This document shows positions 3,942-26,933 of a stretch of 64,000 nucleotides of DNA, piece after piece. The translations under genes and the position numbers were made by a program. Source of the DNA: Deltaproteobacteria bacterium (lineage in GTDB: Bacteria; Desulfobacterota; Desulfobulbia; Desulfobulbales; JAGXFP01); assembly GCA_020056965.1 (NCBI GenBank), contig JAGVGT010000072.1, positions 6,197-70,196 of the forward strand, read 5' to 3'. The notes below the pieces were generated by a model. That model saw only the letters and a list, made by a program, of their open reading frames with translations, ran no database searches and had not been told where the DNA came from. The stretch's first letter is position 1. The number at the start of each line of letters is the position of its first letter.

Positions 3942-5015
3942 ATGAACGAAAGAAAAAAGACAAGACAGATTAAAGTCGGCGCGGTTCCAGTTGGGGGTGA
4001 TGCCCCGGTGGTGGTGCAGTCCATGACCAACACCGATACCCGCGACGTTGCGGCCACGGTGGCACAGGTCAGTCGTCTGGAGGCGGCGGGCTGCGAGATC
4101 ATTCGGGTTGCTGTGCTGGACCTGGAGGCGGCTTTGGCCATCCGGGCCATCCGTGCGCAGATTCGCATTCCCCTGATCGCTGATATCCATTTCGATTCCC
4201 GTCTGGCTGTGGCCGCCATGGAAAACGGCGCCCAGGGCATTCGCATTAACCCGGGTAATATTGGTGGTCCGGACAAGCTGGCCCGGGTGGTAGCTGCCGC
4301 CAAGCAACACTCGGTGCCGATTCGGGTCGGGGTTAATTCCGGGTCGGTGGAAAAGGATATTCTGGCCCGCCATGGCCACCCAACCCCGGCGGCCCTGGTC
4401 GAAAGCGGTCTGCGCAATATTCGGCGATTGGAGGAGTTAGACTTTTATGAAATCAAGGTATCGCTCAAGTCATCCGATGTCCTGACCACCATCGAGTCCT
4501 ATCGACTGCTGGCCGGCCAATGCGAGTATCCTCTGCATCTGGGGGTCACCGAGGCGGGAGGGCTGATCGCCGGTACGGTCAAGAGCAGCGTCGCTCTGGG
4601 TATACTGCTCTCCGAGGGGATCGGCGATACCCTGCGCATTTCGTTGACCCGTGACCCGGTCGAGGAGATTCGGGTCGCCTATGAACTGCTGCGTGCTCTG
4701 CGGATCAGAGAGCGTGGGCCGGAACTGATCTCCTGCCCAACCTGTGGCCGCTGCCAAGTCGATCTCTTCTCTCTGGCCGAAAAGGTCGAACAGTACGTCC
4801 AGAACATTGAGGTGCCCCTGAAGATCGCGGTGATGGGCTGCGTGGTCAACGGCCCTGGCGAGGCCAAGGAGGCTGACCTGGGCGTGGCCGGCGGCCACGG
4901 CGTGGGGATTATCTTCAAGAAGGGCAAGCTGTACAAGAAAGTTCCCGAGGCCGAGTTGCTGGCAACCTTTCTGGCCGAACTGGACCGGCTGGTCGAAGAA
5001 AAACGCCGGGGCTAG
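3942..5015 (+). CDS. ispG: 4-hydroxy-3-methylbut-2-en-1-yl diphosphate synthase IspG/GcpE
   Basis: 357 aa. Motifs seen: 'VGGDAPVVVQSMTNT', 'RINPGNIG' and the Fe-S motif 'SCPTCGRC'. Confidence 0.95.
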   Translation: MNERKKTRQIKVGAVPVGGDAPVVVQSMTNTDTRDVAATVAQVSRLEAAGCEIIRVAVLDLEAALAIRAIRAQIRIPLIADIHFDSRLAVAAMENGAQGIRINPGNIGGPDKLARVVAAAKQHSVPIRVGVNSGSVEKDILARHGHPTPAALVESGLRNIRRLEELDFYEIKVSLKSSDVLTTIESYRLLAGQCEYPLHLGVTEAGGLIAGTVKSSVALGILLSEGIGDTLRISLTRDPVEEIRVAYELLRALRIRERGPELISCPTCGRCQVDLFSLAEKVEQYVQNIEVPLKIAVMGCVVNGPGEAKEADLGVAGGHGVGIIFKKGKLYKKVPEAELLATFLAELDRLVEEKRRG

Positions 5016-5084: not shown

Positions 5085-6818
5085 ATGCGCTATTCGCAGA
5101 TGTTGTTGCCGACCCTGAAAGAAAATCCCTCTGAGGCGGAGGTGGCCAGTCATCGCCTGCTCCTGCGGGGCGGCTTCATTCGGAGATTGACCGCCGGAGT
5201 TTATGCCTATTTACCTTTGGGGCTGGCGACCATCCGTAAGGTCGAGCAAATCGTCCGGGAAGAGATGAACCGGGCCGGCGCCCAGGAGGTATTGTTGCCC
5301 ATTGTCCAGCCCGCCGATCTCTGGATCGAGTCGGGGCGCTGGACCAAATACGGGCCGGAGCTCCTGCGTTTCAAAGACCGCCATAATCGGGAAAGTTGTC
5401 TGGGGCCGACCCATGAAGAGGTCATCACCGATCTGGTCCGGATGAACGTCCATTCCTACCGAAATCTGCCTCTGAACCTCTACCAGATTCAGACCAAGTT
5501 CCGCGACGAGATCCGCCCCCGCTTCGGGCTGATGCGGGGCCGCGAGTTCATCATGAAGGATGGCTACAGTTTTGACCTGGCCGAGGAGGGCGCCAATCTC
5601 ACTTATCAGAAGATGTACGACGCCTACCACCGGATCTTCGCCCGCTGCGGCCTGGCCTTTCGGGCGGTGGAGGCGGACACCGGCACCATCGGCGGCAGTT
5701 TTTCCCATGAGTTCATGGTTCTGGCCGCCACCGGTGAGGATACCATCGTGATCTGCCGGGCTGCGGGCTGCGGTTATGCCGCCAACCTGGAAAAAGCCGC
5801 CGGACCGGCCTCGGAAGCGCCAAAGGAACCGGCAGATATGCTGCCCTTGGAGAAGGTGGAAACCCCCGGGCAGCGCAAGGTCGCGGCGGTGATCGCCTTT
5901 CTGGGAATTGCCCCAAGCCAGCTGGTCAAGACCATGGTCTACCTGGCCGATGGTAAACCGGTGGCAGTCTTGGTCCGCGGCGACCACGAGGTCCAGGATG
6001 TCAAGCTCAAGAATCTTCTGGGGGCGGTGGATGTGGTGTTGGCCGACGACCAGCAGATCTTCGAGGCCACCGGGGTTCCCAGTGGTTATCTGGGGCCGGT
6101 CGGGCTTAAAATTCTGGTGGTGGCCGACCGCGAGGTTGCGGTGATGCGCAATGTGGTGATCGGCGGTGGCGAGAAGAACTATCATTTCCGCAACGCCAAT
6201 CTGGAGCGCGATTTCCGGGTCGAGAAGTTCGCCGATCTTCGGCAGGTGACTGCTACCGACCGCTGTCCCTGTTGCGGCGGCGAACTGGAGTTTCCCAAAG
6301 GTATTGAGGTCGGCCACATCTTCAAGCTCGGTACCAGCTACAGTCAGGCCATGAAGGCCACCTACCTGGATAAGGACGGTCAGGAGAAATTCTTCGTCAT
6401 GGGCTGTTACGGCATTGGGGTGAGCCGGATCGTCGCCGCCGCCATCGAGCAGAACCACGACCAGGACGGCATCATCTTTCCCCTGCCTCTTGCCCCCTTC
6501 AAGGTGGTGGTGCTTAACCTCTCTCCCAATGATGAAAAGATCAGCGGGGCGGCCGAAGCGATCTATCAGGGGCTGCTGGCGGCCGGGACCGAGGTGCTGA
6601 TTGACGACCGCGATGAGCGGCCGGGCAGTAAATTTAAAGATGCCGATCTGGTGGGGATTCCCTTCCGGGTTACGGTCGGCAAGGGGTTCACCGCTGACGG
6701 CACCGTTGAAGTTCGCCGGCGCGCTGGTGCGACCGTTGCCGTTCCTCTGGCCGATACGGTGGCGCTGATCCTTGCGGAGATCGACCGCGAAATGTCGGCC
6801 TTGGCCGGCCAAAGTTGA
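5085..6818 (+). CDS. proS: Proline--tRNA ligase (bacterial type with editing insertion)
   Basis: 'MRYSQMLLPTLKENPSEAEVASHRLLLRGGFIR' is a canonical ProRS N-terminus. I prefer ATG 5085 over the GTG at 5073 in the ORF track. Confidence 0.95.
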   Translation: MRYSQMLLPTLKENPSEAEVASHRLLLRGGFIRRLTAGVYAYLPLGLATIRKVEQIVREEMNRAGAQEVLLPIVQPADLWIESGRWTKYGPELLRFKDRHNRESCLGPTHEEVITDLVRMNVHSYRNLPLNLYQIQTKFRDEIRPRFGLMRGREFIMKDGYSFDLAEEGANLTYQKMYDAYHRIFARCGLAFRAVEADTGTIGGSFSHEFMVLAATGEDTIVICRAAGCGYAANLEKAAGPASEAPKEPADMLPLEKVETPGQRKVAAVIAFLGIAPSQLVKTMVYLADGKPVAVLVRGDHEVQDVKLKNLLGAVDVVLADDQQIFEATGVPSGYLGPVGLKILVVADREVAVMRNVVIGGGEKNYHFRNANLERDFRVEKFADLRQVTATDRCPCCGGELEFPKGIEVGHIFKLGTSYSQAMKATYLDKDGQEKFFVMGCYGIGVSRIVAAAIEQNHDQDGIIFPLPLAPFKVVVLNLSPNDEKISGAAEAIYQGLLAAGTEVLIDDRDERPGSKFKDADLVGIPFRVTVGKGFTADGTVEVRRRAGATVAVPLADTVALILAEIDREMSALAGQS

Positions 6819-6836: not shown

Positions 6837-9029
6837 GTGCCGGTTTGTGAAGAGTTAATCGAGAAGGCTGCGGTTTATCTACCCGAAGGAGATCTCGCCG
6901 TCCTGCGGGAGGCCTGTGCCTTTGCCGGGCGGATCTATACCGGGCGCCACCGTCTGTCCGGCATGCCCTACCTGGCCCATGCCCAGGCGGTGGCCGAAAT
7001 TCTGGCCAAATTGAAGCTGGACTTGCCAACCGTCACGGCCGGCCTGCTGCACGGCGCCCTGAAAGAACCGGCCTCGGTGCCGGAAGAGGAACTGGCCAAG
7101 AAGTTCGGGGCCGAAGTCACCACCATCGTGAAGGGTGTGACCAAGATCACCAGTGTTCACTTCGACAGTCGCCTGGCCTTCCAGGCCGAGAATATCCGTC
7201 GGATGTTTCTGGCCATGTCCGAAGATGTCCGGGTGTTGATCCTCAAACTGGCCGACCGACTGCATGACATGCAGTCCCTGCAGCCAGTGAGTCCGGAAAA
7301 GCAACAGGAATTTGCCCGCGAGACCATGGATCTCTACGCCCCGCTGGCCAGTCGTCTTGGGATTGACTGGGTCAAGCGGGAACTTGAGGACCTTTCATTT
7401 CGCTATCTTTATCCCGACGCCTATCTGGATCTGGCCGGCCGGATCAGCACCTCCCTGGGGGACCGCGAACGCTACGTCGAGGAGGTCAAGGAGATCCTTT
7501 CCGCCAAGCTTCGGGAACAGAACATCTCAGTGTTCCGCATTCTCGGCCGTCCCAAGCACCTGTATAGCATCTATAAAAAGCTTCAGGCCCAGAACATTCC
7601 CTTGGAAAAGGTCTACGACAAGGTGGCCTTCCGGATTATCCTCAAGTCGGTGCGCGAGTGTTACGAGGTGCTGGGACTGCTGCACGATCTTTGGCCCCCG
7701 GTTTCCGGCCGTTTCAAGGATTTTATCGGGACCCCCAAATCCAACCTGTATCAGTCGTTGCATACCACGGTGGTCGGTCCCTACGGTGAGTTTATGGAGG
7801 TCCAGATTCGCACCGAGGAAATGGACCGGATCGCCAACGATGGGATCGCCGCCCACTGGGCCTATAAGGAAGGCAAGACCATCACCAGCCGGGACGCCAA
7901 ACTTTTCCAGGGCTTGAAGCATCTGGTCCAGTCCCTGCAGGATCTTCAAGAGGTCCAGGACCCCGGGGAGTTCATGGAGGCGGTGGTGGATGAACTTCGG
8001 GAGGCGGAGGTTTACGCGCTGACCCCCACCGGAGAAGTCAAGGAGTTGCCCGGTGGCAGCACCCCTCTCGATTTCGCTTACGCCATTCATACTCAGGTTG
8101 GGGATCATTGCGCCGGTGCCAAGGTCAACGGCCGGATCGTCCCGCTTAAGCAGTTGTTGAGCAACGGCGATATGGTGGAGATCATTACCTCACCGACCCA
8201 GAGGCCGAACCGGGGCTGGTTGGCCATGGTCAAGACCAGTCGGGCTCGGGGGCGGATTCGGCACTGGCTTAAGAAGGACGAGTTGGAACGGGCCCTCAAG
8301 CTCGGCCGGGAAATCTGTGAGCGGGAACTGCACAAGCGTGAGCTGAGCCTGAAGAAGTTGACTAAAAGCGGCCATCTGCGGGAAACGCTCAAGGCCTTTG
8401 CGGTCAATAACCTTGACGAGTTGTTGCGGCAGGTTGGTTCAGGCAAGGTGACGGTAGAGGCCATTGCCGAAAAGATGCTGCCCGTCGAATTGCGGCGGGT
8501 TGAGCCGACGCTGCCGGCCGAAGAAGATGTGGCGGAATGGCGGGCCGAGACCAAGCAGAAGGTCTCGAAGGCGCCCCGGCAGTCCAGCGGGGGCGGGCCG
8601 GTTCTGGTCGATGGCTCGGATGATCTTCTGATCAGGATCAGCCGGTGCTGCACACCTCTGCCTGGCGATCCCATTGTCGGCTACATCTCGTCCGGTCGGG
8701 GGATTTCAGTCCACAAAAGGGGATGCCCAAACTATCTGGCCACCGATCCGGAGAGACGTATCGAGGTGGATTGGGCGTCCTCCTTGGCAGGGGCGGGGCA
8801 TCAGGCCCAGATCTTAGTGGTGGCACTTGACCAGAAAGGGCTCATTGCTGAGCTCGGCAGCCGGATCAGTTCGGCCGATGCCGACATTGTCAGCATGGCG
8901 GCCAGGACTTCCGTCGAGAATCTGGCTATTGTGAATCTGGTGTTGGGGGTGAAGAGTCTGGCCCACCTGGAGAAGGTGCTGCTGCAACTGCAACAGATCA
9001 ATGGGGTGTTGGAGGCCAGCCGCAAATAG
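6837..9029 (+). CDS. rel: Bifunctional (p)ppGpp synthetase/hydrolase, RelA/SpoT family
   Basis: 730 aa with a GTG start. It has an HD hydrolase region, the synthetase motif 'YQSLHTTV', and C-terminal TGS and ACT-like regions. Confidence 0.93.
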   Translation: MPVCEELIEKAAVYLPEGDLAVLREACAFAGRIYTGRHRLSGMPYLAHAQAVAEILAKLKLDLPTVTAGLLHGALKEPASVPEEELAKKFGAEVTTIVKGVTKITSVHFDSRLAFQAENIRRMFLAMSEDVRVLILKLADRLHDMQSLQPVSPEKQQEFARETMDLYAPLASRLGIDWVKRELEDLSFRYLYPDAYLDLAGRISTSLGDRERYVEEVKEILSAKLREQNISVFRILGRPKHLYSIYKKLQAQNIPLEKVYDKVAFRIILKSVRECYEVLGLLHDLWPPVSGRFKDFIGTPKSNLYQSLHTTVVGPYGEFMEVQIRTEEMDRIANDGIAAHWAYKEGKTITSRDAKLFQGLKHLVQSLQDLQEVQDPGEFMEAVVDELREAEVYALTPTGEVKELPGGSTPLDFAYAIHTQVGDHCAGAKVNGRIVPLKQLLSNGDMVEIITSPTQRPNRGWLAMVKTSRARGRIRHWLKKDELERALKLGREICERELHKRELSLKKLTKSGHLRETLKAFAVNNLDELLRQVGSGKVTVEAIAEKMLPVELRRVEPTLPAEEDVAEWRAETKQKVSKAPRQSSGGGPVLVDGSDDLLIRISRCCTPLPGDPIVGYISSGRGISVHKRGCPNYLATDPERRIEVDWASSLAGAGHQAQILVVALDQKGLIAELGSRISSADADIVSMAARTSVENLAIVNLVLGVKSLAHLEKVLLQLQQINGVLEASRK

Positions 9030-9071
9030 CGTGGGAATAAACCGAAAGAATGAAGGCAGGGTCACAAAAAA

Positions 9072-9106
9072 AAACGGGTACCAGCCGTTAAGCCGGTGCC
9101 CGTTTC
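9072..9106 (-). terminator. Rho-independent terminator for rpmB, possibly also serving rel
   Basis: Stem 'acgggtacc'/'ggtgcccgt'. An A9 run on the + strand gives a U-run after the stem on the minus strand. Confidence 0.7.
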
Positions 9107-10928: not shown

Positions 10929-11777
10929 ATGACCAGTTCACTGCTTTTCGGCATTATCACGTTCACGTATCTGGCCGCCTCCTTTCTTTACATCGGCGGG
11001 TTTATTTTTCGTTCTCAGAAGGCGGGGTTGGTGGCATCGGTGCTCACCGGCCTCTCTTTTCTGGTCCAAACCGGTGCCATCGCATTGCGCTGGAAAGAGT
11101 CGTATTCGATGGGGTACGGGCATGCTCCTATGTCTAATATGTATGAGTCGCTGGTCTTTTTCTCTTGGGCGATCGTCATCTTCTACATGTTTATCGAGTA
11201 TAAGTTCAAAAATCGGCTGCTCGGGGCCTTTGCGGTGCCTTTTGCCTTCCTCAGTATGGCTTTGGCCTCCTTGACCGGCGACGAAATCAAGCCGTTGATC
11301 CCAGCCCTGCAGAGCAACTGGCTGATCGCCCACGTCATGACCTGTTTTGTCGGTTATGCTGCCTTTGCCGTGGCCTGCGGCATGGGGATCATGTACTTGA
11401 TCAAATCAACCTACGACGAAAAAGCCGACCGAAAAGGGGCGAGTCTACTGGCCACGCTGCCGCCTTTGAGCGTAATTGACGATATCACCCATAAGACTAT
11501 CGTCTTTGGTTTTCTCTGGTTGTCGGCGGGGATCATTACCGGGGCGATCTGGGCCAATTCCGCCTGGGGGACTTACTGGAGTTGGGACCCCAAGGAAACT
11601 TGGTCGTTGATTACCTGGTTCCTATATGCCGCAGCCCTTCATGCCCGCTTTACCAAGGGCTGGGGGGGGAAAAGGATCGCCTGGTTGGCGATTATCGGTT
11701 TTCTAGCTGTGGTCTTCACTTACTATGGCGTAAATTATCTCCTGTCCGGGCTGCACAGTTACGGATCGAGCGGGTGA
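10929..11777 (+). CDS. ccsA: Cytochrome c-type biogenesis protein CcsA/ResC (heme handling)
   Basis: Polytopic membrane protein with the WWD-type motif 'WANSAWGTYWSWDPKETW'. Confidence 0.9.
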   Translation: MTSSLLFGIITFTYLAASFLYIGGFIFRSQKAGLVASVLTGLSFLVQTGAIALRWKESYSMGYGHAPMSNMYESLVFFSWAIVIFYMFIEYKFKNRLLGAFAVPFAFLSMALASLTGDEIKPLIPALQSNWLIAHVMTCFVGYAAFAVACGMGIMYLIKSTYDEKADRKGASLLATLPPLSVIDDITHKTIVFGFLWLSAGIITGAIWANSAWGTYWSWDPKETWSLITWFLYAAALHARFTKGWGGKRIAWLAIIGFLAVVFTYYGVNYLLSGLHSYGSSG

Positions 11778-20361: not shown

Positions 20362-20679
20362 TATATCCGAGACAGGTAAATTGCAGATTCAGATGGTCGG
20401 GAGAAAAAGTCGACGATATGGCCTCTCGTCAAGCTTTGTCAAGCTAACACAACGGCTGGCCGAAAACCAGTTTGAATTGGCGCGGGCGGTTCGATTTGAA
20501 GCTTTTGGCGGTAGGGCAGGTTTTGGACTTTATGACCACGATTGATGGTGGCAATTATGACAAAATTCTGGACCAGTCTCCCATTGTCTGGCCAGAAGAT
20601 CGTAGGTTCTATTGACTTATACTTAGTTATATTGTTTATGTGGTATAGGTCTGTATAACCTAATATAAGTGAGAGAATT

Positions 20680-21864
20680 ATGGACAAGATCAAAAATCCC
20701 TTTTCGCCAGGTGCTGGGTCTCCACCTCCAGAACTTGCTGGTCGCGCCGGTATTATGGAACAAGCCAGTGTGCTGTTGGGGCGAGTGCGCGCCAATCGGC
20801 CGGAAAAGAGCCTCTTGTTGACAGGGCTGCGCGGGGTTGGGAAGACCGTTTTGCTTAATGAGATTGATCGACTGGCGCAAGGCACCGGCTATCGAACCAT
20901 TATGGTTGAGGCGCATGAGGGCAAGTCGTTGGCCGTATTGTTGGCACCTCACCTCCGGCGTCTGTTGTTCGATTTGGACCGGATTGCTGGGGCCGGTGAC
21001 AAAGTGCGGCGGGGCATTGCGGTGCTTAAAAGTTTTGTCGGCGCAATTAAGATCACGGTTGGCGAGATCGACATCGGCTTGGATATTGAGCCGGAAGCGG
21101 GCGCTGCAGATAGCGGTGATCTTGAGGTCGATCTTCCCAGCCTGTTTATGGCTGTGGGCGAAGCTGCGCAGGAGCGCGGTGTTGCCGTTGCCATCCTGAT
21201 CGACGAGATTCAGTATTTCAGTTCGTCAGAGCTAAGTGCCTTGATCATGGCCATGCACAAGATGCAGCAGCGGCAGCTTCCCCTGGTGCTGATCGCTGCC
21301 GGTTTGCCGATTCTGCCGGGTCTGGCGGGGGAGTCAAAATCCTACGCCGAGCGCTTATTCAGTTTCCCAGATGTGGGTCCTTTGCCGGAACCGGATGCGA
21401 TTAAGGCTCTCCAAGACCCGGTTCTGGTGGCTGGAGAAGCGTTTGAACCATCTGCCCTGCAAGAGATTTTTCGATTGACCAAGGGCTATCCCTATTTCCT
21501 GCAGGAGTGGGGCTATCAAGCATGGAATCACGCTGCCGCTTCTCCGATTACCCTGCAAGTGGTTCAGGAGGCAAGCGAGCTGGTCTCCCTGCGGCTGGAC
21601 GAAAACTTTTTCCGGGTTAGGTTTGACCGGTTGACTCCCCGCGAAAAGAAGTTTCTGCGGGCCATGGCCGAGCTTGGAGCCGGGCCATACCGGACTGGCG
21701 ACGTTGCGGATAAGCTTGGTATAAAGATTAGCACCCTTGGGCCTCTCCGTGCCGGTTTGATCAAGAAAGGGATGGTGTATAGCCCGTCCTACGGCGATAT
21801 GGCTTTCACTGTGCCACTGTTTGATGAGTTCATGCGCCGCGCCATTCCAAATTTTGAGCCTTGA
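20680..21864 (+). CDS. Orphan AAA-type ATPase with C-terminal winged-helix (AAA_16/Arch_ATPase-like 'ATP-binding protein')
   Basis: Walker A 'GLRGVGKT', Walker B 'VAILIDEIQYF', and a C-terminal wHTH-like stretch 'LTPREKKFLRAMAELGAGPYRTGDVADKLG'. Confidence 0.7.
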   Translation: MDKIKNPFSPGAGSPPPELAGRAGIMEQASVLLGRVRANRPEKSLLLTGLRGVGKTVLLNEIDRLAQGTGYRTIMVEAHEGKSLAVLLAPHLRRLLFDLDRIAGAGDKVRRGIAVLKSFVGAIKITVGEIDIGLDIEPEAGAADSGDLEVDLPSLFMAVGEAAQERGVAVAILIDEIQYFSSSELSALIMAMHKMQQRQLPLVLIAAGLPILPGLAGESKSYAERLFSFPDVGPLPEPDAIKALQDPVLVAGEAFEPSALQEIFRLTKGYPYFLQEWGYQAWNHAAASPITLQVVQEASELVSLRLDENFFRVRFDRLTPREKKFLRAMAELGAGPYRTGDVADKLGIKISTLGPLRAGLIKKGMVYSPSYGDMAFTVPLFDEFMRRAIPNFEP

Positions 21865-22275
21865 AGGAAGTGCTTTTTCTTTACGATTGAGAGGCGAGCT
21901 GCATGGGTTTCGTAGGGGTTTCCAAATGAACTTTGATTGAAGCCGGTAGCAGATTGTGTGGGCGGCAACACGCCCCAGCTGGTCAGATTGTTTTCTGCTT
22001 ACTCTTGCTGGTGTAGGCGTAGCCGCTATTGCTTCCGCAAAGATGTTCGATCTGGGGCCGCTGTTACACATCTGCGCAGGCAGCCAAATACACACACTCG
22101 CTGGGGGTGGATAATCTGTGGCTGGACGCGGCTGTATTTTTGGGGTCGAAAAATTGGTCTGGTTGTTGTGGGTCAGAAATTGGTACCGAGAGTTGCACAG
22201 CATGCGCGAAAAACAGTCCTAAAACAGTCCTAAAAATCTAGGACTAAATCGACTTTTTTCGTAAAAAATCGCAAC

Positions 22276-22334: not shown

Positions 22335-22410
22335 GCCCTCGTAGCTCAGGGGATAGAGCACAGGATTCCTAATCCTGGAGTCGTAGGTTCGATTCCTACC
22401 GGGGGCACCA
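22335..22410 (+). tRNA. tRNA-Arg (anticodon CCT)
   Basis: Folded by hand. Acceptor GCCCTCG/CGGGGGC, D arm GCTC-AGGGGATA-GAGC, anticodon stem CAGGA/TCCTG with loop TTCCTAA, T arm GTAGG-TTCGATT-CCTAC, and an encoded CCA. Confidence 0.92.
22366..22410. repeat. attL-like direct repeat (3' 45 nt of tRNA-Arg)
   Basis: Identical to 26889-26933: 'ttcctaatcctggagtcgtaggttcgattcctaccgggggcacca'. Confidence 0.9.
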
Positions 22411-22455
22411 CAATATCAAGTAGTTACCTCGTTTGCCTCATTCATTGTCTCTTTC

Positions 22456-22491
22456 CAGTGTGCAAATTATTTACACACTGAGATTGTTTTT
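22456..22491 (+). terminator. Hairpin plus T-run downstream of tRNA-Arg, supplied by the islet
   Basis: 'cagtgtg' / 11-nt loop / 'cacactg', followed by 'agattgttttt'. Confidence 0.45.
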
Positions 22492-22687
22492 CTGAAGTTA
22501 TCTTTCTGGGTTTAATAATAAATTTGTAAATATATCAGTGAGTTGTCTCGCTTGGTGGAGATTGTGGCACCAGTATTGTCAATCCTGGAGTCGGGCGATG
22601 GATCGAGCAAGTTCTGTATCTTCAAGCCTTATTTGACTCGGCTGTTGAATCTATGCTCTTTTCAAAGTTAACCACGTGTGGCTGACC

Positions 22688-25114
22688 TTACAGGTGGAGT
22701 TGTTTTTGCTCTTCCTGAACACTGTATCCAATGGCTTTGTACCCTTGAATCCGGCGATTGTACATTCTCATGAGCATCGGAATATCTGTGTCGATGTAGT
22801 CGTAAACGCGAACCTCTTTTTTGCCGTCGAAATTTCGGTGTAGTCTGCCTGCATACTGCTGCAATGTCCCTCTCCATGAAATTGGTAGGGCCAATAGAAG
22901 GGTGTCCAATCGAGCATCGTCAAAACCCTCGCCAATGTAACGACCGGTTGCAATAAGCACTCTTTCCTTATTGTCCCCGATGTCGTCAAGGTTTTTGGCG
23001 ACCTCGGTTCTTTGCTTTTTTCCCATGCCACCTCGAAGAATTACAACATTCTTCGCTTTTCCATCCAGAAGTTCAGCTAATCGCTCCAGGTGATCCGTTC
23101 TTTCCGTGAGAACGAGCGGGGATCTACCGTCTTTTAGTGATTGCAGGACATCAGCTACGATCATCAAATTTCGACTTTCGTTGGCTGCCAGCTCTCTGTA
23201 GATTTCCTGTATTGAAGGAGTGCCTCCTGATGTTGTGATCTTAGCGTCGGTAAAGCGTGGGATCATCACGTGGTCGAATGGGCGGGCTTTTGCCGCAGAT
23301 CTGGCCTCAACTCGGAAACGTATCGGGCCGCATTGCATGAGAATAATGGGATGATGCCCGTCTTTTCTCACTGGTGTTGCCGTAAGGCCCAGAATGTATT
23401 TTGCCTTGGCCTTCTTCATGATCTGTTCGAAACTGAAGGCTGAAAGGTGGTGACATTCATCCACGATAATCTGTCCATACTCCGCAATAATATCGTTGAC
23501 CTCACCCTTTCGGTAAAAGCTTTGCAAGATGCCAATGTCAAGGCGTCTGGTGGGTTTTTTGCTGCCTCCTCCTATCTGCCCGATATCTTTTTCAGGAATA
23601 TCAAGGAAAGATGCCAACCTTTCTCGCCATTGATCCAGGAGCTGACGGCGGTGAACCAGGATCAGGGTGCTGCGTTTTCTCACAGCGATGAGCTTTGCCG
23701 CGACCACCGTCTTGCCAAAGGCGGTGGCTGCGCTAAGGATGCCTGTATCGTGTGATCGCAACGCCTTGACCGCTGGGATTTGTAGATCACGCAGACGACC
23801 TTTGAACGAGACCTCTAATGGTTTCCCTGTGGTTCGTTCATCTTGTATTGCGAGTTCGATATTAATGCTGCTAAAGAGCTCGGCGGCATCAGTCAGGCAT
23901 CCACGGGGAAGACCGATATGTTTGGGGAAATCTTCTGAGCAAGAGATAACCCGAGGCTTGTCATAGGTCGGTAATCGCATTGCCTGAAATTTGTAAAAGT
24001 CGGGATTTTGAAAGGCAGCAAGTCGGATTAATCTGTTTTGAAGGGCTGGCGGCAAACCCTCCTTTTCGATGTATAAAAGGTCGGCAAGAACTGCTTTGAT
24101 CATTGCTGGTAGCGGGCCTTTTATGATGGGCTCTATCAGCTTGGCGGAAGGCGGCAGTGTCCAGGGATCATCATCAACTTCGTCGCTGGTCTGACTTATC
24201 CTAACTCCAATAACTTCGCCTTTTCTGGTCGCATCTTGAGCAATTAATTCAAGCTCGTGGCCTGATATCGAGCGTACACCGGAAAGAAACGCCCATTGGT
24301 CAGGATAAGGATGGAAGTTCTCATCAAGAAAGACACTGTTTCCCTTTTCTCTTGGCCCCTTTTGTAAAGGCAAGGCAATGAGATTGCCGAATCCCCCTTT
24401 GGGCAGAGTGTCTTGATTCGGAAAAAGGCGGTCATATGAGTCAAGTCCGATCTGGTGGCGTTTCTCCATAGTGATTGTAAGAATGTAGCACCCAACCTTG
24501 CGGGCGATGGAGGCTTCGACTGGTTTAGAAAAGAAAATCCACACATGGCCACCATTTCCGGAGCGGGATCTTTCAAGAATTGCTGGTACCCCGAGGTTTT
24601 TGCAGCTCTCTAAATATTCAGCGACGTCTTCCTGCCATGTCCTTTTGTCAAAATCAGCAGCGAGGAACCAACAAGTGTCGTTCTGAAGCAAGGGATAAAC
24701 CCCGACAGTGTGTTTGCCGACAAGATGATCGTAAATGACCTTGTCCGTAACCGGTAAGAAATCGCGATGGTCACATTGTCCGCATTTGACCCGGGGTTTA
24801 TCGCAAAAGGTACGATTCCATTCGTGCCTACAGGCTGGCGAGTATCCGGTTTTCCCGCCTTTTGTTTCCCAGCGAACGGGATAGATATCCTCTCTGCCCT
24901 TAAAAAGGCGGCTGAAAATGGCAATTTTTATATCGGACGGAGAATCGTTTGTTACACCTGACTTGGAAGAATGTGAGCGAGGTGTGGTTTCTGGGGCGGG
25001 TGGGTTTTCCTGCGGTAGATTGAGGTGTTTTCTGAGGCGCTCATTTTCTTGCCGGAGTTTGGCGCATTCAGAGAGTGCCTCCTCAAGTCTTTTATGGGCG
25101 TCACTATTGTGCAT
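22688..25114 (-). CDS. Archaeo-eukaryotic primase (PrimPol-like) domain fused to SF2 DEAD/DEAH-box helicase
   Basis: 808 aa. AEP motifs are 'LAADFD' (DxD, aa 154-156), 'SGNGGHVWIFF' (sxH, H190) and 'SYDRLFP' (D228). A Cys cluster lies at C95/C104/C111/C114. Helicase motifs are 'AFGKT' (I), 'DECHH' (II), 'LTATP' (III) and 'QYAGRLHR' (VI). Confidence 0.85.
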   Translation of the reverse strand: MHNSDAHKRLEEALSECAKLRQENERLRKHLNLPQENPPAPETTPRSHSSKSGVTNDSPSDIKIAIFSRLFKGREDIYPVRWETKGGKTGYSPACRHEWNRTFCDKPRVKCGQCDHRDFLPVTDKVIYDHLVGKHTVGVYPLLQNDTCWFLAADFDKRTWQEDVAEYLESCKNLGVPAILERSRSGNGGHVWIFFSKPVEASIARKVGCYILTITMEKRHQIGLDSYDRLFPNQDTLPKGGFGNLIALPLQKGPREKGNSVFLDENFHPYPDQWAFLSGVRSISGHELELIAQDATRKGEVIGVRISQTSDEVDDDPWTLPPSAKLIEPIIKGPLPAMIKAVLADLLYIEKEGLPPALQNRLIRLAAFQNPDFYKFQAMRLPTYDKPRVISCSEDFPKHIGLPRGCLTDAAELFSSINIELAIQDERTTGKPLEVSFKGRLRDLQIPAVKALRSHDTGILSAATAFGKTVVAAKLIAVRKRSTLILVHRRQLLDQWRERLASFLDIPEKDIGQIGGGSKKPTRRLDIGILQSFYRKGEVNDIIAEYGQIIVDECHHLSAFSFEQIMKKAKAKYILGLTATPVRKDGHHPIILMQCGPIRFRVEARSAAKARPFDHVMIPRFTDAKITTSGGTPSIQEIYRELAANESRNLMIVADVLQSLKDGRSPLVLTERTDHLERLAELLDGKAKNVVILRGGMGKKQRTEVAKNLDDIGDNKERVLIATGRYIGEGFDDARLDTLLLALPISWRGTLQQYAGRLHRNFDGKKEVRVYDYIDTDIPMLMRMYNRRIQGYKAIGYSVQEEQKQLHL

Positions 25115-26030
25115 ATTTGCGCCATGGTCCTGGAGCCACCCAAACTCCAGCTTCGTGATGCTTGGATCGGAGATGCTTCACAATCGGGGTAAGGAATTCC
25201 CTGATCAACGAAATAACAACCTCAAAATTTTCTGGAGAATCCGTCTGCCCCAGTCTTTTCCTGAAGGCCTTCCATTGCTGAGATTTGATTTGCGCAAATT
25301 GATCTGAAAATGCCGGGATCTGTTCCGGGAGGTCCGTGCCGCGTTGGCGTAGTGTTTTCTCGATGGCCAGACATAGATTTTCTTCGTCAAAGTTAAATTG
25401 TCTGGCAAGCATCCAGATATCATAGAAATCCTTCATGCGGCTGTTCAACTCGCCCAGTTTGACCATGGCTTCGAACTTTTCGGCAATGGCACTTTCAATG
25501 GAGTAGCCCTGGAGGTCGGGGGCCGGAAAGTCAAGCAGGGATGGCAGCGAAATCCTTTGTGGGCCAGGGACAACAATGTCGCCAAAGCCGATATCGAGTT
25601 GCATGTTGATTCGAGCGGTATCAAGCTTGCCGATAAACCGAACCCGCACTCCATGGTAATCGGCATCTTCGGTGATTCGTTCAGCCACAATAGATTTGTC
25701 ATCAAAGGTCAAGCCATCATCCGGTTGAACTAGCGTTGTGCAGATATCCCTAACCTGCCCAATGACTATGTCGATTGCGTTGCTGGACTCCCGACCAAGC
25801 ATATCGATATCCATGGTCGCCCTCGCCAAGGGAAACTTCCATGCCCTGAGCATTAATGCGCCTTTCAGAAGAAAGGTATTAGAATGTGAGGATTGTGAGA
25901 GCCGATACAGAAATCGTTCCATAGCAAAATATTGCAACAGTTCGGCAAAAGGGCGCTGTTCCTGGCGGGCCTTATTCAGTAGCCGTTGCCGAATTGAGAC
26001 CCCGATATTTCTGGGTGTTTGGGTGGTCAT
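25104..26030 (-). CDS. abiEii: Nucleotidyltransferase AbiEii/AbiGii toxin family (type IV toxin-antitoxin)
   Basis: 308 aa. 'FLLKGALMLR', 'TMDIDM' (pol-beta-type catalytic Asp pair) and 'ESAIAEKFEAMV' are typical of DUF1814/AbiEii. Confidence 0.85.
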   Translation of the reverse strand: MTTQTPRNIGVSIRQRLLNKARQEQRPFAELLQYFAMERFLYRLSQSSHSNTFLLKGALMLRAWKFPLARATMDIDMLGRESSNAIDIVIGQVRDICTTLVQPDDGLTFDDKSIVAERITEDADYHGVRVRFIGKLDTARINMQLDIGFGDIVVPGPQRISLPSLLDFPAPDLQGYSIESAIAEKFEAMVKLGELNSRMKDFYDIWMLARQFNFDEENLCLAIEKTLRQRGTDLPEQIPAFSDQFAQIKSQQWKAFRKRLGQTDSPENFEVVISLIREFLTPIVKHLRSKHHEAGVWVAPGPWRKYAQ

Positions 26031-26620
26031 ATCAACGATTCGAGATATGGTTTCATGATATGGTCAACCCGGCAGATACGCCCGTATTTCAGCAGGAGTT
26101 CGCCGTTTCTCTTTCCCCTGGCCCCATAGAGTTTCAGGGCTTCAAGGACCACATCCATTCCCAGCTTGTTGCGGAATTTAAAACAGTCGGCTATGGTTTT
26201 CTCTGGATCGTACACCTTGACGGCTACGCCATCGATATCATGTCGCTCAATCCCGGCCTCATAAGCTTCCTGGGAAAAACGATGGGCCTCTATCGGCGGG
26301 TAATCAAGAGACGGAAGTCGATCATCCCGTGAGACTGCTATTGATACTCGGTGGGGGACTTGGGTTGTCAGTCCATGAAAGGACAGGGCGGATATAAGAC
26401 ATATCACCGCCTTGGGGTATCGCAGACAGACAGTGGCCAGGTCGGGATTGCTTATTGAGGGAAGCTCAGATAGACGATATACCCCCCTCGATACGGCGGT
26501 AATAACTTTTTGGTCCCTCAGACGGTAAAAGGCAGACCGGCTGACTCCCCCGGCAATGGCTTCGCTCATTCGCAGTTGACCACCGGCAAGCCGGAATATG
26601 TCTACGGGATTGTTTTTCAC
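26027..26620 (-). CDS. abiEi: AbiEi-family antitoxin / transcriptional regulator (type IV toxin-antitoxin)
   Basis: 197 aa. N-terminal wHTH-like 'RLRDQKVITAVSRGVYRL' and 'AVICLISALSFHGLTTQVP', typical of AbiEi. There is a 4-nt ATGA overlap with abiEii. Confidence 0.8.
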   Translation of the reverse strand: MKNNPVDIFRLAGGQLRMSEAIAGGVSRSAFYRLRDQKVITAVSRGVYRLSELPSISNPDLATVCLRYPKAVICLISALSFHGLTTQVPHRVSIAVSRDDRLPSLDYPPIEAHRFSQEAYEAGIERHDIDGVAVKVYDPEKTIADCFKFRNKLGMDVVLEALKLYGARGKRNGELLLKYGRICRVDHIMKPYLESLI

Positions 26621-26752
26621 TCTTGGGCCGATTGAAACCTTTTGTCGCCATTAGTTAATAAGTGGTGACATTATGTCTTGTCGGTTTGCCAAGGTCAAGC
26701 TCTTTCGCTTGATTAGGTCGTCAAGTATATTCCGGTCGTCAGATTGTTGGCC

Positions 26753-26816
26753 GGTGTGTGACTTGGTGTGTGACTTTTCGTAGAAAGTCTGCTAAAGGAT
26801 ATAAAATCTGCTAAAG
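26753..26816. repeat. Iteron-like direct repeats at the upstream end of the islet
   Basis: 'ggtgtgtgactt' occurs twice in tandem (26753-26776). 'tctgctaaag' occurs twice, 19 nt apart start to start (26788-26797 and 26807-26816). Confidence 0.7.
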
Positions 26817-26888
26817 TGTGTAAAATTTATCCTTTTGCTTTCGATAACTTATTGAATTTAGGCATTTATTTAGATGCCTTTGGGCGTG

Positions 26889-26933
26889 TTCCTAATCCTG
26901 GAGTCGTAGGTTCGATTCCTACCGGGGGCACCA
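26889..26933. repeat. attR-like direct repeat (copy of the tRNA-Arg 3' 45 nt)
   Basis: Perfect copy of 22366-22410. It has no matching tRNA 5' half upstream, so it is not a functional tRNA. Confidence 0.9.

Follow-up and report, generated by a model that had tools for sequence, protein, structure and literature searches.

Introduction

Toxin–antitoxin (TA) modules readily enter operons of mobile DNA, and a toxin module can even be embedded in a helicase-containing defence operon, as the anticodon nuclease PrrC is within the type Ic restriction-modification system EcoprrI. AbiE is a TA and abortive-infection system of type IV, or by proposal type VII (PMC3985639; preprint 10.64898/2026.01.19.700257). 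Among primase-polymerases (PrimPols), the CRISPR-associated CAPPs are DNA-dependent enzymes (PMC8211822), and non-CRISPR homologues of the 'CAPP-helicase' type have already been noted as common in mobile genetic elements (MGEs) (Zabrady et al. 2021, PMC8211822). TOTE stands for TPR, OB, TBP, Effector (Aravind, Iyer & Burroughs 2022, cited by PMC12458937). For mobile DNA itself, the CIME class is defined in ICEberg 2.0 (PMC6323972).

Here, we analyze a locus within a 64,000-nucleotide stretch of a Desulfobulbales contig (the window), at which an AbiE pair runs on into a primase-helicase gene. With our confidence about evenly divided, we read it as a mobile islet with a composite conflict operon, in which an exchangeable, autoregulated TA pair drives and retains an autonomous primase-helicase.

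Results

An overlapping operon of abiEi, abiEii and a primase-helicase gene

The operon lies on the minus strand in the order abiEi (26027..26620, 197 aa, a wHTH antitoxin/autorepressor), abiEii (25104..26030, 308 aa, a DUF1814 nucleotidyltransferase toxin) and an 808-aa fusion of an AEP-TOTE PrimPol to an XPB-like SF2 helicase (22688..25114). The original prediction had placed three genes here, at coordinates that agree with the ORF listing, and the two overlaps it reported, a 4-nt ATGA between the abiE genes (26027-26030) and 11 nt between the end of abiEii and the helicase start (25104-25114), are both legible in the sequence. Its statement that no strong ribosome-binding site precedes the helicase gene is fair, since the sole Shine-Dalgarno-like element is an AGGA at 13 nt from the ATG. 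The start codon of abiEi is GTG in the window and ATG at the same position in relatives. All three genes, with overlapping junctions, recur in L001, L010 and L008, the three closest homologues (96%, 80% and 78% amino acid identity), and overlaps are kept in a further locus, L016; judged from this shared layout in the three closest homologues, the arrangement exceeds chance.

Upstream of abiEi, a candidate operon promoter, TTGACC-17-CATAAT (10/12 match), is followed by an inverted repeat, GTnnCCA-N12-TGGnnAC, which constitutes a putative AbiEi operator (together 26643..26698, minus strand). The −35, the −10 and the repeat arms are invariant or compensated across the window, L001, L008 and L010, and promoter and repeat are retained in nucleotide-diverged relatives (74-93%). 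A weak internal promoter-like site (25448-25419, 9/12 match) lies within abiEii.

Profile matches upheld the predicted identities of both AbiE proteins (AbiEi: PF13338, 26.3 bits with the cut-off at 25, and a full-length match to PADLOC AbiEi at 6e-70; AbiEii: PF08843, 7.6e-46, PADLOC AbiEii 4.6e-99). AbiEii retains all of motifs I-IV of Dy et al. 2014 (G57-A58-x15-D74-I-D76 with R70; K185FEAM; K200-D-F-Y-D204). The assignment of AEP and SF2-helicase domains to the third protein was likewise correct. Its AEP domain (24248..24928, minus strand, aa 63-289) matches Pfam PF22548, AEP-TOTE (344.9 bits, 2.8e-103), and the PDB CAPP structures 7nqd/7nqf (4e-15); it contains the motifs DxD (154-156) and SGNGGH (185-190), ahead of which stand an N-terminal helix (aa 3-30) and four invariant cysteines (95, 104, 111, 114). 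The XPB-like module (22715..24127, minus strand, aa ~330-800) matches XPBII by phmmer (2e-23), ResIII (5e-26, aa 440-583) and Helicase_C (2.7e-6), and its top Foldseek matches are archaeal XPB-Bax1 and TFIIH XPB over ~480 aligned columns. It carries GKT (467-469), DECH (552-555), TATP (578-581) and QQYAGRLHR (752-760). The residues named in the original prediction, D154/D156 of the AEP domain and K468 of Walker A, are invariant in 25 homologues, as is DECH 552-555. The catalytic motifs of AbiEii and of the PrimPol-helicase are intact.

The operon is the entire cargo of a mobile islet

The locus is an integrase-less, CIME-type mobile islet in the 3' half of a tRNA-Arg(CCT) gene, an att-flanked insertion that the original prediction had overlooked. 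The target gene (22335..22410, plus strand; ARAGORN; Rfam tRNA, 68.5 bits) ends in the attL core (22366..22410, plus strand), the 45 nt that run from its anticodon loop to the CCA end, and these are identical at 45/45 positions to the attR core (26889..26933, plus strand), which duplicates the 3' half of the tRNA gene. A repeat that starts in the anticodon loop is a classic tyrosine-integrase signature. Relative to the empty site, found in locus L102 of a related genome in the order APS kinase, tRNA-Arg, cytochrome, the insertion comprises 4,523 bp (22411..26933), and both of the window's repeats align to the single att copy there (1718-1762). The islet is low in GC (0.46-0.49, where flanking DNA has about 0.54-0.65), and the three-gene operon is all that it carries. 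No recombinase was found within the islet, nor by phmmer anywhere in the window, nor was a helper integrase found; the islet would presumably move by a tyrosine integrase acting in trans. A degenerate third att-like copy (22571..22593, plus strand, 83% over 23 nt), also conserved in L001, is possibly a relic of earlier accretion.

Islets holding only the trio arose at three distinct att sites: tRNA-Arg (window, L008, L010), tRNA-Thr (L046; 50-nt repeat, 4,525 bp) and a non-tRNA site (L027; 30-nt repeat, 4,358 bp). More broadly, exact repeats of at least 20 nt bracket the helicase gene in 10/41 loci, compared with 0/21, 0/19 and 1/46 in controls.

Such anatomy could belong to a minimal satellite or hitchhiker, a modified form of the original prediction's second reading, whose AEP-helicase would replicate or propagate the islet once a helper integrase had excised it and whose AbiE would act as an addiction module; we consider this unlikely. 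Consistent with it, the AEP-helicase is the only gene common to many att-flanked, integrase-less islets of 3.6-10 kb at various tRNAs and other sites, the window and L102 show presence/absence polymorphism at the exact att boundaries, and the L001 islet is 93% identical in nucleotides while the adjoining tRNA T-stem differs. Bacteroidota-like contigs also place an HTH_17-...-helicase operon beside integrases, and AbiE stabilizes plasmids (Dy et al. 2014, PMC3985639). However, the helicase belongs to SF2 and is XPB-like, unlike the SF3/SF4/D5 helicases of known AEP replicases, and no circular contig was seen. In the plasmid collection, matches occurred only on records of at least 26.7 kb, and full-length ones only on plasmids of at least 47 kb, with no small plasmid having the AEP-helicase as its sole Rep; the Pantoea plasmid examined encodes an IncFII RepA of its own, and a replicon typing is recorded for most of the others. 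Full-length homologues numbered 0 in 50,697 phage records and only ~31 in 2.9 M viral contigs. In E. coli, the gene is variable cargo of hotspot islands that carry their own int, alpA and yfjI. The original prediction's second reading, a mini-replicon with the AEP-helicase as Rep, is disfavoured on the same grounds (an SF2 enzyme that is not a replicative hexamer, large plasmids only, no phage genomes), and we regard it as unlikely.

Pairing with AbiE is recurrent but optional

We examined linkage in a non-random sample, the best 80 of at least 599 matches to the third gene. In this sample, AbiEii was the commonest neighbour of the AEP-helicase and was position-specific: among distant homologues it stood directly upstream (−1) and co-directional in 8/80, compared with 5/347 other flank genes (Fisher P = 6e-4). 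The linked AbiEii proteins fall into at least five mutually divergent subfamilies over at least five helicase clades, some pairs showing no detectable mutual similarity. The preferential linkage to AbiE on which the original prediction depended is therefore borne out, with divergent AbiEii subfamilies recruited repeatedly. Its description of the third gene as obligately coupled was wrong, as ~90% of the sampled homologues (again the best 80 of at least 599) lack AbiE, which also means that the pairing may be opportunistic. AbiE was absent at 6/6 genome loci, 6/6 opened annotated plasmid contexts and 3/3 opened E. coli contexts, and the third-gene family, which is very large and is present in 876/5,426 complete E. 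coli genomes, usually has no AbiE adjoining. Other toxins occupy the AbiE slot: HigBA in A. baumannii (HigB-HigA-helicase, 25-nt gap) and in the closest AbiE-less relative, L009, and a PIN gene in L034. The pairing is thus independently recurrent yet optional, and each module is autonomous elsewhere.

These data bear on an obligate tripartite abortive-infection machine, corresponding to the original prediction's first reading, in which sensing of, or action on, replicating phage DNA by the PrimPol-helicase would free AbiEii from AbiEi control to arrest the cell. Translational coupling, with overlaps conserved in the window clade and L016, the repeated convergent recruitment of unrelated AbiEii subfamilies to one position, and trio-only islets at three independent sites all argue for such a machine. 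Yet both modules occur much more often alone, most other clades have junction gaps of 7-63 nt instead of overlaps, and mechanistically different toxins, the HigB RNase and PIN, hold the same slot, which disfavours a specific AbiEii-helicase interface. We therefore judge one obligate machine improbable, and it is not our best reading of the trio.

Neighbourhoods of the primase-helicase family

In E. coli CP4-57-type islands, the AEP-helicase occupies the spot held by abpAB in K-12. Family neighbours include Schlafen/Fic, HNH, OLD-like ATPases, DUF4143 and ParE; members are also found next to integrases, resolvases and RIT-like recombinase trios, as well as on conjugative plasmids. Both Pfam and PGAP name the family 'TOTE conflict system', and both CAPP and the DRT7/UG10 defence reverse transcriptase contain related AEP domains. 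We found no homologue with a tested phenotype in the literature, so the 'defence' label comes only from context and naming, and the integrase, resolvase and conjugative-plasmid context fits a role in MGE establishment, replication or repair equally well. Quite doubtful, in our view, is an MGE-borne DNA-damage tolerance or repair module (repriming or MMEJ-like synthesis with fork or bubble remodelling) that the TA pair merely adjoins: the related MGE PrimPol AgaPP performs translesion synthesis and MMEJ and aids post-damage survival, a PrimPol-RT protein of E. coli is reported to play a part in responding to oxidative damage, and XPB and RadD are repair helicases, but housekeeping repair genes do not typically show so patchy and HGT-driven a spread in islets, in neighbourhoods rich in TA and defence genes and in a defence hotspot, and position-specific AbiE recruitment would be left without explanation.

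Discussion

Under the composite-operon reading that we favour, the cargo is one operon, P(abiE)/operator, abiEi, abiEii and PrimPol-XPB helicase. AbiEi would act at the conserved inverted repeat to repress the single promoter, and would also neutralize AbiEii; once released, AbiEii would arrest growth. It is one of the DUF1814 nucleotidyltransferases, and its MenT relatives block tRNA charging. Through this repression, neutralization and arrest, the TA pair would give regulated, stress-responsive transcription, ensure post-segregational retention of the islet and probably act as an abortive back-up. Translation of the helicase gene would proceed by coupling to abiEii. The PrimPol-helicase would itself be an autonomous conflict protein, its XPB-type translocase opening duplex DNA and its CAPP/TOTE-type PrimPol priming or extending on the strand thus exposed, with invading or replicating foreign DNA as the most likely target. 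Because the TA slot is exchangeable (several AbiE subfamilies, HigBA, PIN), AbiE would be an optional driver or partner and not an obligate subunit.

Comparison with known systems

The locus resembles AbiE in its bicistronic abiEi-abiEii with a 4-nt overlap, wHTH AbiEi, DUF1814 AbiEii with motifs I-IV, inverted repeat at the promoter and carriage on mobile DNA. The original prediction set the third gene outside the description of AbiE, which holds insofar as AbiE is described as two genes and the window operon runs on into an 808-aa PrimPol-helicase, an extension seen in ~10% of sampled third-gene relatives (best 80 of at least 599); the gene itself, however, belongs to a named Pfam/PGAP family. 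PrrC is likewise a latent tRNA-directed toxin co-encoded with an SF2 (ResIII-type) DNA translocase, and this parallel suggests that a back-up or guard logic may apply to AbiE and the helicase. The window toxin's partner is a PrimPol-helicase, not a restriction enzyme, and the likeness is one of gene content.

The window AEP domain matches the TOTE domain PF22548 over its full length, and the E. coli homologue that takes the TOTE name from PGAP is 48% identical to the window protein, also over the full length. However, TPR-OB/TBP genes were found neither in the islet nor in the 25 gene families most often neighbouring at 86 loci, leaving an AEP-helicase without the system behind the domain's name. 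Of the AEP domains with solved structures, that of CAPP is the closest (7nqd/7nqf, about 4e-15), and the 'CAPP-helicase' type shares the PrimPol-then-helicase architecture, but there are no cas genes or arrays here, the 808-aa protein scores 103.7 for NCBIfam PrimPol_Msp, below the cut-off of 200, and TA coupling is not among described CAPP features. Archaeal XPB/XPBII-Bax1, TFIIH XPB and RadD, which are dsDNA translocases or DNA-opening enzymes, are the best sequence and fold matches to aa ~330-800, with all SF2 motifs present; in the window, by contrast, the module is fused to a PrimPol and sits within a mobile islet without a Bax1-like nuclease partner. DRT7/UG10, a PrimPol-reverse transcriptase protein whose defence role has experimental support, has a related PrimPol domain (PADLOC RT_UG10_large 2.7e-6, aa 161-266), but its partner domain is a reverse transcriptase instead of an SF2 helicase and it lacks a TA. 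Finally, the islet shares with CIMEs intact attL and attR, a tRNA target and the lack of integration and transfer genes. Whereas CIMEs are usually regarded as decayed ICEs or IMEs, many independent islets here keep one conserved gene, the AEP-helicase, a pattern that decay alone does not predict.

A canonical AbiE pair coupled to a PrimPol-helicase gene

The operon consists of three minus-strand ORFs, exactly as claimed in the original prediction and recovered in our ORF table of the window: abiEi (26620-26027) and abiEii (26030-25104), both identified by Pfam and PADLOC, and the gene for an 808-aa protein (25114-22688; Pfam) that joins an archaeo-eukaryotic primase (AEP) to a helicase, here called AEP-helicase. 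The HMM searches proposed as a check on AbiE bore out both assignments. AbiEi aligned to its PADLOC model over aa 7-196 of 197 (6e-70) and carries a winged helix-turn-helix and C-terminal antitoxin domain (Pfam PF13338, 26.3 bits, cut-off 25). AbiEii, a DUF1814/pol-beta nucleotidyltransferase, matched PF08843 (7.6e-46, 157.4 bits) and PADLOC (4.6e-99), and abiEi lies immediately upstream of it, the gene order that defines AbiE. Motifs I and II of AbiEii read G57-A58-x15-D74-I-D76 together with R70, where the family pattern is hG[G/S]x15DhD plus Arg, and motifs III and IV read K185FEAM and K200DFYD204 (with DxxD). An Ala at position 58 is known from homologues, and in S. agalactiae AbiEii mutation of any of the four motifs abolishes toxicity (Dy et al. 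2014, PMC3985639); sequence comparison finds all four kept in the window protein.

The AbiE pair itself is canonical, but the operon is not bicistronic: the two overlaps described earlier, ATGA between abiEi and abiEii and 11 nt between abiEii and the helicase gene, can be seen directly in the sequence. Just upstream of abiEi, in the region 26643-26698, sequence matching and conservation point to a candidate sigma-70-like promoter (TTGACC-17-CATAAT), and an inverted repeat (GTnnCCA-N12-TGGnnAC) overlaps the -10/+1 region. Across four islets with a DNA identity of just 74-93%, both elements either stay unchanged or vary in a compensated way. Whereas the AbiE of Dy et al. has two promoter inverted repeats, the window operon has one that is conserved. 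Scanning revealed no terminator-like site between abiEii and the helicase gene. Taken together, the conserved promoter, the inverted repeat and the gene overlaps support a single abiEi-abiEii-helicase transcription unit, although they fall short of proof given a weak promoter-like match within abiEii.

The third protein has the domain order first noted for it, with an N-terminal AEP at aa 63-289 followed by ResIII/Helicase_C (Pfam), and the residues then singled out, the primase DxD (154-156) and Walker A GKT (467-469), are invariant in 25 homologues, as is the DECH box (552-555). Its AEP domain matches Pfam PF22548, 'AEP-TOTE', end to end (2.8e-103, model positions 2-228 of 230). The closest solved AEP in a PDB search is the CRISPR-associated Prim-Pol (CAPP) of Marinitoga, a DNA-dependent primase-polymerase whose helicase-bearing homologues outside CRISPR systems are frequent in mobile genetic elements (Zabrady et al. 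2021, PMC8211822). Residues ~330-800 resemble XPB (phmmer to XPBII 2e-23; Foldseek 4e-19, about 480 columns), and SF2 motifs I, II, III and VI are all present (GKT, DECH, TATP, QxxGRxxR). These motifs, with a predicted XPB-like fold that includes an N-terminal DRD-like region, point to the XPB family, the fine structure of the module being uncertain at a model pLDDT of only 70.5. Ahead of the AEP core lie a long N-terminal helix (aa 3-30, window 25025-25108) and four invariant cysteines, C95, C104, C111 and C114 (aa 95-114, window 24773-24832), which probably form a zinc-binding element; these two regions are poorly modelled or of obscure role.

The operon fills an integrase-less islet at tRNA-Arg(CCT)

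A tRNA-Arg(CCT) gene occupies 22335-22410, and its 3' 45 nt, from anticodon loop to CCA (22366-22410), recur perfectly (45/45) at 26889-26933. The 4,523 bp between these repeats hold just the three genes, at a GC content of 0.46-0.49 versus roughly 0.54-0.65 in both flanks. A related locus, L102, is an empty site in which APS kinase, tRNA-Arg(CCT) and cytochrome genes lie together with nothing between; its flanking genes are 68-79% identical to the window at the nucleotide level, and its one 45-nt segment (1718-1762) aligns to each window repeat. Because the site is empty and the repeat single in L102, the islet was gained or lost as one discrete unit at att-like boundaries.

The islet itself encodes no recombinase. 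AbiEi, AbiEii and AEP-helicase are its sole genes and none gives a recombinase match; phmmer with six recombinase queries, a search of limited sensitivity, found none in the 64-kb window, where no helper integrase was identified, and an Rfam scan of the islet detected the tRNA alone. Target-site duplication was rejected as the origin of the repeats, because their variable lengths (17-98 nt) and their start in the anticodon loop are the pattern of a tyrosine-integrase att core. Terminal overlap indicating a circle was absent from short contigs and from L001, another AEP-helicase locus. Within each genome the att copies are 96-100% identical (we compared those of the window, those of the related locus L008 at 4182-4226 and 8625-8669, and the single L102 segment), whereas between genomes they differ, including by compensatory T-stem changes in both copies; this pattern implies either independent insertions or continuing exchange between copies (concerted evolution).

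Several further features mark this locus. A degenerate third att/tRNA copy (22571-22593), 160 nt within the islet and kept in L001, may serve in integrase binding or be left over from tandem accretion. The region 20480-22263, 5' of the tRNA, contains an ORF (20680-21864, plus strand) for a 394-aa AAA_16/ATPase_2-like ATPase; L102 lacks it, so this is a separate insertion, the second at this tRNA locus. An ATPase_2/DUF234 ATPase occurs in another AEP-helicase islet (L087). Finally, window ~31000-60395 (~29 kb) has no counterpart between the matching L102 segments (5687 to 5912) and is a large insertion or rearrangement relative to L102.

The same cassette recurs elsewhere. All three of the closest homologues of the 808-aa protein (96, 80 and 78% identity) lie in abiEi-abiEii-helicase arrangements with overlapping junctions. 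Two of these, L008 and L010, sit at tRNA-Arg(CCT) between 45-52 nt repeats, and L008 is syntenic with the window, its islet having diverged about as far as its flanks (74.5% vs 71-73% nucleotide identity). Islets holding only the trio are also found at tRNA-Thr(TGT) with a 50-nt repeat (L046, 4,525 bp) and at a non-tRNA 30-nt repeat (L027, 4,358 bp). We found no description of this recurrent three-gene AbiE-PrimPol-helicase cassette in the literature.

A large helicase family with an islet habit

At 90% identity the family forms no fewer than 8,000 clusters in the protein collection searched, and nearly all of the 120 best among the matches listed are full-length, two being truncated, with the same two-domain architecture. 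The AEP domain alone, used as query, matched 1,435 clusters at 50% identity with E 1e-30 or better. An E. coli homologue, 48% identical to the window protein over its full length and named 'TOTE conflict system archaeo-eukaryotic primase domain-containing protein' by PGAP, occurs in 876 of the 5,426 complete genomes (16%), O157:H7 included; native E. coli homologues include WP_000233452 and WP_061892948. In CP4-57-type islands of O157:H7 and M19 the gene comes after int-alpA-yfjI-yfjJ (E. coli-type loci: L097 9001-11361; L098 9001-11367; L099 8352-12154). The place after yfjJ holds either AEP-helicase (O157:H7, M19, plasmid pCP127) or the AbpAB anti-phage genes abpB/abpA (K-12), and this alternation makes it a defence-type hotspot. 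K-12 YfjK (AbpB), considered as a possible family member, proved to be a different helicase at the same hotspot. In M19 and EC93, DprA paired with a hypothetical protein adjoins AEP-helicase. Our literature search returned no report of a phenotype for any AEP-helicase homologue, and AbiE, PrimPol and TOTE go unmentioned in the recent defence-discovery papers examined.

Exact repeats of at least 20 nt bracket the helicase in 10 of the 41 loci with enough flank, compared with 0/21, 0/19 and 1/46 for three kinds of control. When loci with shorter flanks are included, repeats of 17-98 nt are present in about 17 and enclose 3.6-10 kb. Where the repeats reach at least 45 nt, ARAGORN identifies tRNAs for Arg, Pro, Thr and Cys, an 18-nt repeat abuts tRNA-Gly, and those of L035, L045 and L054 are tRNA-like. 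In L054 a 46-nt repeat resembling a tRNA 3' half occurs three times (4254-4299, 9030-9075, 11124-11168), indicating two tandem islets, the first with AEP-helicase. Ten small-islet genes, the largest and most candidate-like, yielded no recombinase, and Phage_integrase occurs in 3 of 130 large neighbours of AEP-helicase loci. Recombinases do adjoin the gene in two other settings: RIT-like trios on alphaproteobacterial conjugative plasmids (L091 8469-11904; L092 8480-11933), and Bacteroidota-type integrases (Arm-DNA-bind_5) on human-gut contigs of a viral collection (L116-L131, e.g. L118 11259-16175). In both settings tandem tyrosine recombinases lie immediately after the helicase gene and convergent with it. 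On the gut contigs the helicase (966 aa) closes an HTH_17 - 219 aa - DUF3307 operon; in IMG/VR AEP-helicase is rare.

An exchangeable slot upstream of the helicase gene

We determined neighbourhood statistics, as the original prediction had advised, for 80 metagenomic loci with helicases 52-60% identical, the best 80 of at least 599 matches. Pfam-verified AbiEii lies directly 5' of the helicase gene and co-directional with it (position -1) in 8 of 80 loci (L014, L016, L020, L022, L027, L046, L066, L071), against 5 of 347 other flank genes of the same loci (odds ratio 7.6, Fisher P = 6e-4), a local background surely far above the genome average. The gap between the two genes varies between -8 and about +63 nt. 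The eight linked helicases span at least five helicase clusters and remain 50-60% identical, whereas similarity among their AbiEii partners extends from 77% identity to none that can be detected. Repeated capture of different AbiE modules upstream of the helicase accounts best for this contrast.

The obligate coupling of the third gene to AbiE that had been supposed does not hold: the pairing is facultative and the modules autonomous, with roughly 90% of metagenomic loci lacking AbiE, and none was found in six genome-collection loci scanned with a single protein as query. Other toxin-antitoxin (TA) genes take its place. In L009, the closest relative without AbiE (71-73% identity), HigB/HigA adjoin the helicase within a 3.7-kb islet whose repeat is 26 nt long. 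On an A. baumannii plasmid the order is HigB-HigA-helicase, all in one direction and with a gap of 25 nt, and in L034 a PIN toxin takes position -1. Further occupants are OLD-like or DUF4143 ATPases, Schlafen-Fic, HNH, RmuC and a resolvase. Given this variety, the slot is exchangeable, and TA modules, AbiE above all, are its preferred occupants. We found no published description of such a TA slot, or of the habitual tiny att-flanked islets without integrase.

The 3' side of the helicase also has recurrent neighbours. A ParE-like gene overlaps its 3' end in L012, and a co-directional two-gene module, encoding a ~130-aa CcbP-like protein and a ~380-aa protein with no Pfam match, follows directly in L028 (7092-8621), L035 (7038-8579), L088 (3116-4709), L019 and L025; L056 has a DUF6398-CcbP fusion at the same place.

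Interpretation and significance

Both halves of the cassette are of known kinds, AbiE being experimentally characterised and AEP-helicase predicted and named. Our preferred reading, to which we give an even chance, is a mobile integrase-less islet with a composite conflict operon, made of an autoregulated AbiE module and an autonomous PrimPol-XPB effector on DNA. The AbiE module would supply the promoter, with AbiEi acting at a putative operator, and would secure retention of the islet while probably serving as abortive arm. Co-transcription of the trio and translational coupling would deliver the PrimPol-XPB protein, an effector with a presumed DNA substrate and defensive role. The target of AbiEii may be that suggested by analogy with MenT and by the known neutralisation mechanism, and the islet would be mobilised in trans.

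That AEP-helicase is instead a hitchhiker promoting its islet's own propagation is conceivable but not likely. An obligate tripartite Abi system of AbiEi, AbiEii and helicase appears unlikely, the pairing being facultative. We are doubtful, too, that the PrimPol-XPB helicase is the defining core gene of an unrecognised class of minimal integrase-less att-flanked islets whose propagation it would promote. Such a class may extend over four tRNA species (Arg, Pro, Thr and Cys by ARAGORN), tRNA-like repeats and several non-tRNA sites; its enzyme would, for example, replicate or repair excised or target DNA, hijacking a helper integrase, or drive priming-based insertion, with AbiE and other TA modules as addiction cargo. 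Less radically, TA-coupled PrimPol-helicases may constitute a genuine, new abortive-infection system of three parts. It is improbable that AEP-helicase is a repair module and the TA a bystander.

If the islet does carry a composite conflict operon, one of the commonest uncharacterised 'conflict' proteins gains a defined compact genetic context, and AbiE, always described as two genes, gains a recurrent three-gene form. The catalytic residues are obvious mutation targets and a tractable E. coli homologue exists; the trio offers a solid lead, testable through E. coli, but not a categorical surprise. Repeated capture of unrelated AbiE, HigBA and PIN modules directly before one gene is a natural experiment on how TA modules serve the genes beside them, whether through regulation, retention or abortive back-up. 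Att-flanked islets without integrase also pose the question of who moves them.

Comparison with known systems

The mini-replicon reading of the original prediction, with AEP-helicase as Rep, is disfavoured by helicase type and by plasmid and phage distribution. Plasmid records with the gene range from 26.7 kb to 2.4 Mb, full-length copies occur only on plasmids of at least 47 kb, and the full-length gene is absent from 50,697 phage genomes. In pRN1 ORF904 and P4 alpha-like replicases, the AEP is fused to an SF3/D5/DnaB-type helicase and is the sole Rep of a small replicon; the window protein, unlike these, has an SF2 XPB-like helicase, and the Pantoea plasmid that we opened has its own IncFII RepA, most other plasmid records likewise carrying replicon typing.

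With the TOTE conflict system (TPR, OB, TBP, Effector; Aravind, Iyer & Burroughs 2022, as cited in PMC12458937) the trio shares the AEP domain of PF22548, and the TOTE partners, a TPR-OB S1/CSD protein and a TBP-like protein, are absent from the islet and from the common neighbour families of 86 loci. CAPP differs in lying within a CRISPR-cas operon next to cas1-cas2, whereas the islet has no cas genes; the protein scores 103.7 bits against the CAPP equivalog NF040561 (NCBIfam, PrimPol_Msp), under the cut-off of 200. A CRISPR link hinted at by PADLOC model PDLC01465, which matches the domain only, was dismissed for lack of cas genes in the islet and of tandem or CRISPR-like arrays in the window. 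For AbiE embedded in type I R-M operons, the literature offered no usable published statement. Cis-mobilizable elements (CIMEs), for whose mobilisation a helper ICE or integrase acts on the att sites, are defined by retention of attL and attR and absence of integration and transfer genes (ICEberg 2.0, PMC6323972), and the islet shares this form, having kept both att sites without genes for integration, excision or transfer.
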